DNA of 64,000 nt from Octopus vulgaris (Eukaryota): assembly GCA_951406725.2 (NCBI GenBank), contig OX597819.1:124496001-124560000 (forward strand), in the 5' to 3' direction. Position 1 is the stretch's first letter. Every line of letters starts with the position of its first letter. The notes under the pieces are model-generated. The model saw only the letters and a list, made by a program, of their open reading frames with translations, did no database searches and was not told the origin of the DNA. Positions 5,704-54,539 of this stretch are shown in pieces. A program made the position numbers and the translations under genes.

Positions 5704-5872
5704 AATTTACAGTAAAAATATTTCTTTACCTTCACCCGTTTAATACAATAAATCAATTAATTGCATTGCAATTTAAAACATTTATGTATTAAGAATTTGG
5801 GTACTTTACCAACAGTATATTGGATAAATGATATCTCATAGTGTGTTACACCCATAACCCCTATCTGACTTT

Positions 5873-6045
<173 letters not shown>

Positions 6046-7957: not shown

Positions 7958-8487
7958 GGATCTTTTCGGTTTGAACGGCAGTTTTTTAAAATAATTTCCA
8001 CGTAACTAAACACTTTTAAACTTCGTATACTGGTAGACTGTGTTTATAAAACATCTTTTTCTCTTGGCTTTATTGAGAAAAGTCTATGGTTTGTAAGATA
8101 TTTGTTGGTTTTTTTCAATTTCTGAAATTTCAACCAATCAATGACGTCTATTGAGGTGAAAACATTCTGTGCCGTATGAATATGTCCCTCGTTTAAGAAA
8201 CAGATTGGGTTTATTTACATTTCTGAAGAAAAAAAGATACCCTTCCCTCCACTCCTAACCCTAACCCTAACTCTAACCCTAAAACAAATTGAAATGCAAT
8301 AGATCGATACTAGGGTTATAATTATGGGTGACAATTTCATATGACACCGCTAGAAAAAACTGCTGTTCAAACCGAAAAGATCAAAAAAAAAAAGCAACAA
8401 ATATCTTACAAACCATATACGAAGTTTAAAAGTGTTTAGTTACGTGGAAATTATTTAAAAAAACTGCCGTTCAAACCGAAAAGATCC
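7958..8487. mobile_element. Second GGATC-MITE (7958-8382) plus an inverted partial copy (8383-8487)
   Basis: High identity to 7190-7601; the composite is flanked by a 44-bp direct repeat. Confidence 0.85.
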
Positions 8488-9154
8488 GTAGTCCCAAACC
8501 GATCACTGCCTTGTGAGTGAATTTAGCAGATGGCAACTGCACGGAAGTTCGTCGTGTGTGTACATGCATCCTTGCGTTTATCTCTCACAGATTGATAACC
8601 AGTATTGGAAAAAAATTGGTAAAAAGAGACCAGTAGAATAAGTACAAACTTAACCTAAATCCTGGGGTCAATTTGATCAATCAAAACCTTCAAGACAGTG
8701 CTGCAACATGGCCGCAGTCCAATGACTGAAACAGAATAAAAGAAAGAATTCGAACAAACTGGAATACTTGCTGATATTTTTTTGTCCAAAAATTTTAGTC
8801 TTCTCTGAAAGCTAAGATTATGAACTGCTGCTCATATGCGTATCATTGAAATTACACTCAAACATGCAGCTGCAATCAGTACCTTTGGTCTATTCGGCCT
8901 TGAGTCTTAAGGTTAAACCACGCTCTCTTGCGAGAAAAGTTCTCTGATCTTCAAAATTTTCTTGCCTTTGAATTACAGTGAGATTTTCGTTAACATCCCC
9001 ACCAGAACTAGTACTGCAGTTGATGTTGGAAAAAGGAAAGCCTGTGAATAATGCAGTAAACAGAACTAGATTTTGAGTCCTCTATCTATTCCCGACCGTA
9101 TACTTCAATTACTTTTCTGGACTGTGAAAAGACCCTTTGAACGATATATCTATA

Positions 9155-9540
9155 TTACTCTTTTACTTGTTTCAGTCATTTGACTGCAGCCATGCTGGAG
9201 CACCGCCTTTAGTCGAGCAAATCGACCCCGGGACTTATTCTTTGTAAGCCCAGTACTTATTCTATCGTTCTCTTTTGCTGAACCGCTAAGTGACAGGGAC
9301 GTAAACATACCAGCATCGGTTGTCAAGCAATGCTAGGGGGACAAACATACAAACACACATACATATACATATATACGACAGGCTTCTTTCAGTTTCCGTC
9401 TACCAAATCCACTCACAAGGCATTGGTCGGCCCGGGGCTATAGCAGAAGACACTTGCCCAAGATGCCACGCAGTGGGACTGAACCCGGAACCATGTGGTT
9501 GGTTAGCAAGCTACTTACCACACAGCCACTCCTGCGCCTG
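9155..9540 (-). mobile_element. tRNA-derived SINE family A
   Basis: Head GGCGCAGGAGTGGCTGTGTGGTAAG (A box), GGTTCAGTCCC (B box), central (TA)/(TG) tract, tail GGCGGTGCTCCAGCATGGCCGCAGTC..GACTGAAAC(AAGTAAAAGAG)n. Other copies: 1085-1300-, 8491-8745+, 16657-17022-, 22339-22790+, 28620-29028+, 31130-31515+, 33662-34105+, 40068-40610+, 41070-41270-, 50630-50830-, 51117-51523-, 58681-59045-. Confidence 0.9.
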
Positions 9541-9697
9541 TATATTGTATACTGTTTTAATGTGGACACTCTGAAAGACCTTTAAGGATCCAATGTAGGA
9601 GTTCATCCTTGGTCGAAGTGAACCATTGACGAAGATCATTGAGTTTTGTCATTCCTGTGATTCCCGCATCCGAAAATTCATATACTGTTGCTTCAGT

Positions 9698-10035
9698 CTG
9701 ATACGATACGTCCGAAACGTGGTCCTTTGCTATTCGTAAGACCCGCAGAAGAGAAAGCAGGTGAACCCCCGACACCGAGAGCACCGATGGATGGATGAAT
9801 GCGCATCCAGGCTCAGCGGTTGCGTAGGAAGTCGGGGACAAGAAACAGGAAGAAAGAGTGAGAGAAAGTTGGGGCGGAAAGAGTACAACAGGGGTCGCCA
9901 CCACCCCCTGCCGGAGCCTCGTGGAGCTTTAGGTGTTTTCGCTCAATAAACATACACAACGCCCGGTCTGGGAATCGAAACCGCGATCCTACGACCGCGA
10001 GTCCGCTGCCCTAACCACCGGGCCATTGCGCCTTC
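9698..10035 (-). mobile_element. tRNA-derived SINE family C (tail type 1), TSD ACTGTTGCTTCAGT
   Basis: Head GGCGCAATGGCCCGGTGGTTAGGGCAGCGGACTCGCGG..GGTTTCGATTCCC; 14-bp TSD at 9684-9697 and 10036-10049. Confidence 0.88.
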
Positions 10036-21001: not shown

Positions 21002-21481
21002 AAGGAGGAATTACAACCGTGTTTCGTGGTCTGCTACCACAACAGCTCCTTTATAGGATCCAGTTAGCTCAAGACATCATCAGGAGGAACCATGTCCGGT
21101 TTTGGCCCCTACTCCTCTACCGTTTTGATGTGGCGGGGACCCCCCCACTTTCAGAGGTGTCTTCAGCTCTGGTGTTGGGTGTATGTCTTCTTTCTTCTTC
21201 TTTCTTCTGTTTCCTGGCCTCTTCGATGTATCGTCAGTGAGTGTCAGCCAGTGACTGACTGACTTGTCAAATTTTTCCCTTTAAATACCTGCTGCTAGGC
21301 TCCAGCAGGCAGCCCCAGCAAGTTGTCCCATGACACTGTCTCACCTTAACTGACTAGTGAAGGCGCATAGTCTTAGCCTGTGCATTCTCTAAACAACTGT
21401 CACCTGTCAGTTGGCGAAGCTGATTCAGTGTCAGCTTGTCTCACCTAGTGATGTTATTTCCCACCGGCATGTTATGACTTT
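21002..21481 (-). mobile_element. ~480 bp interspersed repeat, possibly a solo pLTR
   Basis: Near-identical copy at 52663-53110 with the same termini; truncated copy at 36343-36541; strand inferred from the truncation and from CTGATGA..GAAAC. Confidence 0.6.
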
Positions 21482-22508
21482 CAAGCCATTTTTGGTCTTC
21501 CTGCTTCAGCCATTAATATGGTTCTGAGAAAGATTTTTCCATGCAGGAAAAAACATTTTGCAATAAGTCTGATGTGTAAAAACACCCAGTCTCCTTGTAT
21601 ATTTGTGGGGAGTGCAGTGGCTATCAGAATAAACATAAGAGAAAGCAATTTTGACTGTATGCAAGCAGAACCTTTGACTTGACAAACCTGAGAGTGCATA
21701 AGTGCTGTTCATTAAGACTTGTCCTATTTGAGAAAGGGTGGACAGAACAAACATCTCATAGAAAGGAATATTTTTTTCTCCTGAGACAGCTGAATGTAAA
21801 TAATGTCAAAGGAAGTGAAAGAAGCTATTTTTTTTCACATTTCACAAACAATGAATAGAAACTACCTATCCCACACCTTTTGGCTTTGTGTTATCAATGA
21901 AAGGATACATCTGTTTGTAGATAACTTCTTTTTGTACCAAATAATATCAAGGGTGTGTTCTGAATGCAAATGGCTGTACTTTAATGGTGGTAGTGGGGGG
22001 AATCTTTTGACACTCTCCATTTTCTGTTTTTTATTTTCTATTTTTATGGGGTGGGTTATATATTTATCAGAGGCCTCATTTAATTAATGTTTCTAGGACT
22101 TCCTAGCTCATCAGCATCACCACCACCACCACTGCTGCCGCTGCCACCTATACTGCTCTCAGGTGATAGAGGAAGTAATGGGTGTTAGATGATGAAATGT
22201 AGGGGCCAAGAAAAAATCTTTAAAAAATACTTGTATGAATTAAAATACAAAAAAAATTTCAGTCTGATACAAACGCAAACTATTTCAATTTATATATTTT
22301 TGGAAAATAGACATGAATGTTCTCAAAGACTTTATAACAGGAGTGACCGTGTGGTAAGTAGCTTGCTTCCCAACCACATGGTGTCAGGTTCAGTCCTCTG
22401 TGTGTGTGGCACCTTGGGCAAGTGTCTTCTACTATAGCCTCAAGTCAACCTTGTGATTGGATTTGGTAGACGGAAACTGAAGGAAGCCTGCCGTATATAT
22501 GTGTATGT

Positions 22509-53110: not shown

Positions 53111-53689
53111 ATAAATCTCATGATTGTAACTCACGATAAGGATAAGGACAACAAAATGAAATGCCAATAACCTGTTTCTTTTGAACTGATACCACAACTT
53201 GACAACAGCACTTACACATTTTTTACATTGAAATAATATGGCTTAGTGAAAGGTGGAAGTGCTGGGTTTCTGAGGGTGCTGAGAGGAAGGGAGGAAGCTA
53301 TCATGACACCAGAGACCTGCACAAATGCTTGCAACAAAGTAAACTCTGCTAAAAAATTACATCCAGGTGATTATATCAAGGCGGCGAGCTGGCAGAAACG
53401 TTGGCATGCCAGGCGAAATGCGTAGCCGTATTTCATCTGCCATTACGTTCTGAGTTCAAATTCCGCTTTGCCTTTCATCCTTTTGGGGTCGATGAATTAA
53501 GTACCAGTTATGCACTGAGGTCGATCCATTTGTCTGTCCTTGTTTGTCCCCTCTGTGTTTAGTCCCTTGTGGGTAGTAAAGAAATATATATCAAACTGGG
53601 TGATGGATTAGACATCTCACTCAAACCTACATTGATTGGCTCAGGTCAGAGGCTGTAAATTAGATCACAATGTTATTTTTATTATCTTA

Positions 53690-54200
53690 TGATTTTTCTA
53701 TGAGTTTCTTATCTTACATCGTGTGGAGCTGAGCTCAAACTATGACTGGAGTTGCTATACACGTCTTGCAAACAACTTGCACATGCAAGTGCTACCAGTC
53801 AAAAACTCCGCATACTGGAAGCCAGCAAGTGTATGGGGTCATCAGGAGAGAATGCGCGCTGTTTTGGGGCCTACCTCTCGACAGCATTAATGCGCACTGG
53901 CCCCTCCTCACTGATATGAGGCCCTGCTTGCTAGATCAGCTGGTTAACAAATGAAGCTCAATATTCTTCTAGCCATCGTTCATCGTCTCTTTTTAACCAA
54001 ATCCAGTGGCTAGCCTTTTCCACTGTGGTTTGGATATCGGTCATGGTGGTATTGACTTTACAATGAGTTAAGCCTAACGATTACAACAGTCATCTCACAC
54101 TGTGTCCAACAAACCTTCTACATCCGACTTTGATTGGAAAAAGTTCTGCTTTCCAGCCTGCGTCTTCACATTCCTCAAGGAGATCATAGTGTTCGCCGTA
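53690..54200 (-). mobile_element. 3' end of a Hero-like RLE non-LTR retrotransposon
   Basis: Manual translation of 54194->53958: EHYDLLEECEDAGWKAELFPIKVGCRRFVGHSVR*LL*SLG..VEKASHWIWLKRDDERW, matching the recalled Hero C-terminal GW..FPVEVGCRGF..ASxWxWLKR pattern. Confidence 0.75.
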
Positions 54201-54539
54201 GTTTGTGACTGTTTTTTGTTAGGCAGTTTTCTGGACTGCATAGATAGCATTTATATGTTGATGGCTATGAAGGCAGCAAGCTGGCAGAAACGTTAGCATG
54301 CTGGGCGAAATGCTTAGCGGTATTTTGTCTGTCATTACGTTCTGAGTTCAAATTCTGCCGGGGTTGACTTTGCCTTTCATCCTTTCGGGGTCGATAAATA
54401 AAGTACCAGTTACACACTGGGGTTGATGTAATCGACTTAATCCTTTTGTCTGTCCTTGTTTGACCCCTCTATGTTTAGCCCCTTGTGGGCAATAAAGAAA
54501 TATATATGTTGGTGGCTATGCACTTCTAACCCTTGATAA

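Follow-up and report, generated by a model that had tools for sequence, protein, structure and literature searches.

A putative hammerhead ribozyme with a split stem II in the 3′ untranslated regions of HERO-type LINE retrotransposons

A HERO-type LINE copy and the element it derives from

The window analyzed here is a stretch of 64,000 nucleotides of the Octopus vulgaris genome (contig OX597819.1, positions 124,496,001 to 124,560,000). Its minus strand holds a short copy of a HERO-type LINE with unrelated repeats on either side and an open reading frame (ORF) remnant that is interrupted by one stop. The initial annotation had placed a permuted, pseudoknotted hammerhead-like motif about 60 nt past the stop codon of a Hero-like element, and both halves of that description hold: the ORF remnant belongs to an RT/restriction-like-endonuclease LINE and stops with TGA at 53960-53958, and the letters described are present on the minus strand at 53897-53835. 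The core is as described, but its limits were drawn too narrowly, as the fold starts ~40 nt earlier, at 53934, and runs on for another 13 nt on its 3′ side, to 53822. The parts of the copy are as follows.

53763..54182, minus strand: 5′-truncated HERO-type LINE copy, about 420 bp, with the last ~75 ORF codons and the entire 3′ untranslated region (UTR)
53958..53960, minus strand: ORF stop codon TGA
53922..53934, minus strand: helix IIa upstream strand (G-run 53925-53922) and distal extension (53934-53927)
53906..53921, minus strand: junction hairpin between helices IIa and IIb, 5 bp with a 6-nt loop
53899..53904, minus strand: helix IIb 5′ strand, its first G in the place of hammerhead G10.1
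53891..53897, minus strand: stem III extension, 5′ strand
53880..53885, minus strand: block S, the stem III 5′ strand and GUC triplet
53874..53879, minus strand: stem I 5′ strand
53866..53871, minus strand: helix IIb 3′ strand, ending in C11.1
53858..53865, minus strand: block G, the GAAA box and stem III 3′ strand (G12, at 53865, is A here)
53853..53857, minus strand: stem III extension, 3′ strand
53846..53851, minus strand: stem I 3′ strand
53839..53845, minus strand: CUGAUGA box, C3 to A9
53822..53838, minus strand: helix IIa 3′ strand (53838-53835) and distal extension (53829-53822)

On the hammerhead model, the cut is predicted between 53880 (C17) and 53879 on the minus strand. Several other features lie close by. 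A perfect palindromic hairpin occurs near the 3′ end of the element (53791-53777), inside which the upstream partial copies at L260, L261 and L267 stop, 94-95 nt 3′ of the predicted site, a possible RT stall. Immediately 3′ of helix IIa, a 14-nt stretch outside the hammerhead core (53820-53806) is near-invariant in the closer lineages (L083, L084, L094, L100) and is a candidate protein-binding site. An abundant short repeat occurs on both sides of the element, with one minus-strand copy at 54260-54400 and the other at 53380-53560.

Long young copies of the family carry open frames of 1,100-1,175 aa. The 1,175-aa protein P0001 matches RVT_1 (E value of 5.7e-19); its best PDB matches are R2 proteins, narrowly above L1, and its C terminus shows, by eye, a CCHC knuckle and a PD..E endonuclease motif. 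Like other restriction-like-endonuclease LINEs of the R2 superfamily, the element has a single ORF, with the RT followed by a zinc knuckle and a restriction-like endonuclease motif, and 5′-truncated copies that share a fixed 3′ end. A guessed start-codon pattern found no match. We tentatively assign the element to HERO on the basis of its motifs and the lack of a fixed target, and we take Zebulon to be the same as HERO. An Octopus-named protein match agrees with the label, as does the described abundance of R2-Hero in cephalopods (PMC10294476). A single ORF with RT, CCHC knuckle and PD..E and no fixed target is likewise described for the HERO/Zebulon clade (PMC4640811, PMC10294476).

Some related loci have peculiarities of their own. 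Distant lineages have repeated GGAAAGAC words in common in their 5′ UTRs (L063:5130-5230; L099, L109, L088, L093, L111). The tandem at L063 is embedded in another long open frame (L063:1-2885 and 8830-9901), and L069 holds rearranged, partly inverted copies. HERO-type sequence also occurs on contigs of two bacterial genome bins (L154, L155), where it is most likely animal host DNA.

Predicted fold of the window family

Read 5′ to 3′, the blocks of the motif come in the order cut site, GAAA, CUGAUGA (S, G, C). As the initial annotation stated, this order fits none of hammerhead types I to III; it does have a precedent, being the order of type-SGC hammerheads (PMC10085705). The same annotation saw no obvious stem II and considered a trans or dimeric fold, neither of which stands, as the partners that close stem II in cis lie upstream of the coordinates it covered. 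In the window family, C-runs both follow A9 and precede G12, so that a direct stem II is impossible. Both C-runs have upstream partners: a G-run that forms helix IIa, then the 5-bp hairpin, then the next G-run, which forms helix IIb. The G-run at 53925-53922 pairs with the C-run 3′ of CUGAUGA, one G having changed to A in the window copy, and the distal extension adds 8 bp between 53934-53927 and 53829-53822. Young and older copies also differ in helix IIa by a U-G/U-A change that affects one side only. In the predicted fold, stem II is thus split into a four-way junction, with two helices inserted between A9 and G10.1. A further helix extends stem III.

An Rfam scan of the motif region returned no hammerhead and no other relevant match. 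The plain nested minimum free energy (MFE) fold of the motif is not unusually stable (z of 0.41), which is expected because the fold is pseudoknotted; in the window copy, this nested fold shows a competing pairing between the G-run and stem I.

Decay in the window copy and conservation among sister copies

In a search of the same genome (G000, 2.8 Gb), there were 2,525 candidates at first look, of which 40 were scored and the best 30 fetched. The 3′ end of the family is common to 29 of these 30, L009 terminating early. The GTC triplet is present in 27 of the best 30 copies, CTGATGA in 25 (with CTGACGA in one more) and GAAA in 25, the remainder at this box being AAAA in four, including the window copy, and GCAA in one. 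The AAAA of the window copy is a G-to-A decay of GAAA, as had been supposed from that copy by itself. Stem III was also correctly paired from it, but its GCT/AGC letters are a decayed form of the CCG/CGG pairing of the family, and we read both changes as CpG-type decay. The window copy itself lacks an intact GAAA box and is predicted to be inactive because its G12 is A.

The genome holds a second HERO-type family (42-65% protein identity), whose 3′ UTR, 400 nt long, shows the same fold despite a different sequence; the strict structure descriptor used below matches 13 of 30 copies of this family. Two of its copies lie in the window, and both carry the same G12-to-A decay.

21003..21519 (approximate), minus strand: 3′ UTR fragment of the second HERO-type family, CUGAUGA at 21083-21077, GAAA changed to AAAA
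36342..36535 (approximate), minus strand: shorter copy of the second HERO-type family, CUGAUGA at 36423-36417, GAAA decayed

The motif is intact in 24 of 26 copies in long young loci, as against 11 of 30 older copies, which points to selection on the element, not on dead copies, as the force that keeps the fold. This difference also bears on the idea that the ribozyme only trims or destabilizes read-through host transcripts, or ends the element mRNA, with the tandem copies described below being unrelated to it. The motif is indeed carried by thousands of truncated copies, judging from the first-look candidates, as such a role might predict. However, the fold appears to be kept for the element itself, and insertions end ~120 nt past the site, meaning that priming does not take place at the cut end; we regard this role as very improbable.

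Covariation and catalytic rules in distant HERO-like loci

Through alignment of the C-terminal protein, 73 related loci were collected from metagenome, viral and genome contigs, of which four (L149, L150, L152, L153) were left out before counting as weak matches; the viral contigs contributed two weak loci, without use. A structure descriptor was run on the sequence 3′ of each ORF. Since 10 of the 69 loci have less than 200 nt of UTR, the strict test covers the 59 UTRs of at least 200 nt, and among these it found 21 full and 25 core matches. Dinucleotide shuffling gave no full and two core matches in 5,900 shuffles, the reverse strand gave none in 59, and elsewhere in 474,670 bases there was no full match; the motif is therefore not a product of chance. 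A relaxed descriptor (U3, A8, a 3-bp IIa and 700 nt allowed) matches 28 of the 69 loci. Conservation in other HERO 3′ UTRs, which the initial annotation had suggested for fish and proposed as a check, is thus borne out, with covariation as set out below.

No descriptor match was obtained in 31 of the 59 UTRs with enough sequence, many of which look decayed or truncated by eye: many retain the layout but for one or two decayed letters and others end early, and one lineage has the motif ~500 nt from the stop. In L110 and L119, the most distant loci, no motif was seen by eye. Motif-bearing rows are spread over most branches of a quick protein tree (54 rows of at least 60 aa), which was not used for the order of events.

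The 30 matching loci (28 distant and the two families of the genome) were grouped into 15 clusters at 80% identity. Six helices located after the ORF co-vary, each with three to five different pair types across the clusters; pairing inside the minimum lengths of the descriptor is partly by construction, whereas the variety of pair types is not. Stems I and III, whose covariation had been put forward as a check, co-vary both across the 15 clusters and in an alignment of six close sequences, and flank the site together with A15.1-U16.1 as in hammerheads. In that MAFFT alignment, which was not fitted to the structure and holds only these six sequences, 11 of the 29 pairs have changes in both partners; none of 500 shuffles was as high, and slid controls gave 0-3. 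The permuted, pseudoknotted hammerhead core first proposed from the window copy is upheld by these matches and co-varying helices. We conclude from them that the fold is an SGC-order hammerhead core conserved in the 3′ UTRs of HERO-type LINEs, of which the window copy would be a decayed version. Three other ways of forming stem II, namely directly, as a hairpin downstream of CUGAUGA, or in a dimer only, were rejected because the upstream partners co-vary in cis.

The letters that vary do so within the rules of hammerhead chemistry. With N17 left free, 29 loci read GUC in 14 cases, GUU in nine and GUA in six; GUG was absent, so that N17 is never G (NUH in 29/29). The pair G16.2-C15.2 is found in 15 of 15 clusters. 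The C3-G8 tertiary pair is replaced by the covariant U3-A8 in L109 and L111 and by U3-G8 in L085 and L086. At the IIb pair adjoining G12, in the position of G10.1, 14 of 15 clusters have G-C, and 13 of 15 form the junction without spare bases. Because the patterns at N17, G16.2-C15.2 and U3-A8 are those of hammerhead chemistry, self-cleavage is likely for intact copies. What counts against the predicted activity is the interruption of block C by two helices between A9 and G10.1, an arrangement without tested precedent: at most one or two inserted bases are known in this block (Eckert et al., PMC10085705), and Penelope hammerheads are described as tolerating one unpaired base before stem II (PMC4209133).

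That interruption also lends weight to the alternative that the fold is derived from a hammerhead but cleaves rarely or not at all, being bound instead by the HERO protein, which would place priming ~120 nt downstream, while tandems would arise by read-through of tandem donors. R2-type proteins bind a 3′ UTR structure near the priming site (PMC3414825), and HERO insertions run through the predicted site. Binding alone, however, would not require that N17 avoid G, that C3-G8 change to U3-A8, or that G12 and G5 be kept across 15 clusters. Linear read-through, moreover, can only shorten the upstream piece of a tandem, yet the junction described below persists from 100% to ~83% identity, and in other lineages as well (L086, L099, L109). 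We hold this alternative to be improbable. The fold may also serve in RT recognition, as the initial annotation suggested.

A direct stem II, with 10.1-11.1 closing A9/G12, is possible in two of the 15 clusters. An uninterrupted block C that pairs with block G as stem II is not found; thus, although the fold would work like an SGC hammerhead, it is not classed as one. Stem I lies within one of the two parts that flank the predicted cut, and four helices join these parts through 18-32 bp (14 cluster representatives).

Partial tandems, a fixed junction and deleted derivatives

Among 19 distinct long loci, seven consist of a ~3,737-bp unit that is repeated in part, head to tail, through the same junction. 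A probe from the ORF start returned 30 loci, 12 of which reach the start of the 5′ UTR; all 12 carry their own tail upstream, 29 nt to >900 nt long and joined at the same junction. All 40 places that were scored contain the junction, at identities as low as 83%, and its position is fixed, ~120 nt past the predicted cut on the 3′ side. In 28 of 30 copies the 3′ end of the insertion lies 0-8 nt inside this junction, again ~120 nt past the cut, and priming is therefore internal to a continuous unit. Read-through from UTR to ORF start is also seen in L086, L099 and L109, where collapsed assembly is possible.

Insertions longer than one unit are observed, and all long young copies carry the predicted site free of indels. 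Of 30 junction loci (two of which may be a segmental duplicate), 23 run through the upstream predicted site, seven stop before it and none stops at it. Insertion 5′ ends do not pile up at the site, with 0/30 in the second round and 1/30 in the first; the single case, L240 among 30 young short copies, starts exactly at the predicted cut, after a T-run. The lack of a 5′-end pile-up equally fits an RNA that is never cut.

Variants are shared between the two halves of some tandems, 11 of 11 in L064 (four of them private), four in L065 and one in L063; none are shared in the other four of the seven tandems, which have few variants. Three of the four private shared variants of L064 are A-to-G changes within ~50 nt and could be edited bases of a single RNA template that was copied twice. 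One study has three contig sets (X1-X3), guessed to be RNA, in which the 3′ end of an internally deleted unit is joined to its 5′ start; a 1,283-nt contig of X1 closes on itself across the junction and the uncut site, a graph that a tandem would also give. A linear tandem template accounts equally for this closed contig and for the variants shared between tandem halves. No places with many ends occur in the contig sets guessed to be RNA. The 5918-to-8402 deletion of the three contig sets was not seen among the 30 + 30 genomic loci checked, nor is it listed for run X15.

Deleted derivatives that keep the junction are common in the genome. Nine loci (L258, L261-L264, L268, L270, L273, L275) are internally deleted to 0.6-1.4 kb and retain the 5′ UTR, junction and ribozyme region, and look like non-autonomous mini-elements. 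The breakpoints of many derivatives lie near unit positions 5770-5940 and 8400-8530, as do those of the deleted contig in X1-X3. None of the ~9 small deleted derivatives (0.6-1.4 kb) holds two full rounds, though rolling-circle copying might yield them. At L263:1305-2095 (minus-oriented), two tandem rounds carry different deletions, the upstream round holding sequence that is skipped downstream, and deletions can therefore arise during reverse transcription.

A proposed circular RNA route

We propose that the RNA of the element likely cleaves itself after GUH, that a unit-length RNA is likely circularized, and that it is copied from an internal start, a reading to which we assign a probability of roughly 60%. 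In the active fold, G12 would stack on helix IIb, whose G-C pair would stand in for G10.1-C11.1, with helix IIa and the hairpin inserted after A9. A partial tandem copy, transcribed by read-through, would yield an RNA with two sites, and cutting at the two successive sites would release one unit. Because four helices span the cut while stem I lies within one part, the ends of the unit RNA would be held in register, and the 18-32 bp that tie them would favor sealing by self-ligation or by a host RtcB-type ligase. The element RT, priming from target DNA at the junction, could then cross the sealed site, copy one round and continue into a short second round, producing a partial tandem and with it the next two-site RNA. 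A circle copied for an extra round would explain why full-length copies have a piece of their own tail ahead of them. The same circle model has been proposed for Penelope elements (PMC4209133) and demonstrated in part for retrozymes (PMC7229834).

The fold could also cleave but leave a linear or nicked template, with the RT jumping across ends held by the four helices or, in a variant of this route, making a homology jump from the cut 5′ end to the redundant 3′ tail (pseudo-LTR route). Such a template shares all the sequence evidence for cleavage, the cross-site pairs would hold a nick without ligation, the start of L240 exactly at the site is as expected, and metazoan retrozyme hammerheads are described as self-ligating poorly, at 1-3% (PMC7229834). 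Long young copies, however, all pass the site without indels, and 5′ ends do not accumulate there. RT jumps across ends usually leave scars, as in R2, which further counts against this route, and we consider it unlikely, if less so than the protein-bound fold discussed above.

Extended to the clade, the circular route would mean that an entire clade of protein-coding, autonomous LINEs replicates through circular RNA made by a four-way-junction, non-circularly permuted hammerhead that clamps its own cut ends for ligation; priming would be internal, copying would continue beyond one round, and such a LINE, much like a coding retrozyme, would spawn deleted mini-circles. We give this wider statement about even odds.

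Relation to known ribozymes and retroelements

The closest relatives in fold are the type-SGC non-circularly permuted hammerheads (HRIMA-1 and variants; Eckert et al. 2023), which cleave in vitro (PMC10085705). They share with the HERO fold the order of cut site, GAAA and CUGANGA, the crossing stems, all core letters and a short linker between stems I and II (1-8 nt in HERO, typically 3 in type SGC). In type SGC, however, stem II pairs blocks G and C directly, which is impossible in 13 of the 15 HERO clusters, where a fourth strand closes the junction. Type-SGC RNAs come from metatranscriptomes, whereas the host of the HERO fold is an animal LINE and its stem III is extended by a helix. That study (PMC10085705) does not contain the word "Hero" and names retrotransposons only in a reference.

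Penelope-like elements (Cervera and de la Peña 2014, PMC4209133) likewise carry hammerheads in the terminal repeat of an autonomous retroelement that forms head-to-tail partial tandems, with U3-A8 covariation in the core. Their hammerheads are type I, minimal or dimeric, and they encode a GIY-YIG endonuclease and telomerase-like RT, unlike HERO with its R2-like RT and C-terminal restriction-like endonuclease. In retrozymes, hammerhead self-processing to unit RNAs, circles, RtcB-type ligation and tandem cDNA are described (PMC7229834; see also PMC4918200), and RtcB outdoes self-ligation (PMC7229834). The deleted HERO derivatives of 0.6-1.4 kb resemble retrozymes, which, unlike HERO, are non-coding, 170-400 nt long in animals and equipped with canonical type I or III hammerheads (PMC7229834). 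The HDV-like ribozymes at the 5′ ends of R2 and L1Tc are also self-cleaving RNAs that process a LINE transcript, as cleavage is predicted to do here. They adopt an HDV fold at the 5′ end and free a linear RNA from a co-transcript, whereas in HERO the hammerhead fold belongs to the 3′ UTR and precedes the priming site.

In the openly accessible literature that was searched, no HERO ribozyme, HERO circular intermediate or four-way-junction hammerhead was described. The SGC order alone is already published; the predicted split stem II and its LINE setting were not found described, and a replication route via a circle is possibly new for LINEs.

If the fold is what we propose, it would be a hammerhead architecture that breaks the rule of an uninterrupted CUGANGA block, and non-circular RNA permutation would extend from viroid-like RNAs into animal genomes, in thousands of copies. 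A predicted ribozyme whose cut ends are tied by 18-32 bp would also be a candidate tool for making large circular RNAs. Bouneau et al. reportedly named a tandem structure in the title of their 2003 paper on a fish element, and the route proposed here would, if true, supply a testable mechanism for it. It would also overturn the textbook view that LINE reverse transcription always proceeds from the 3′ end of a linear RNA.
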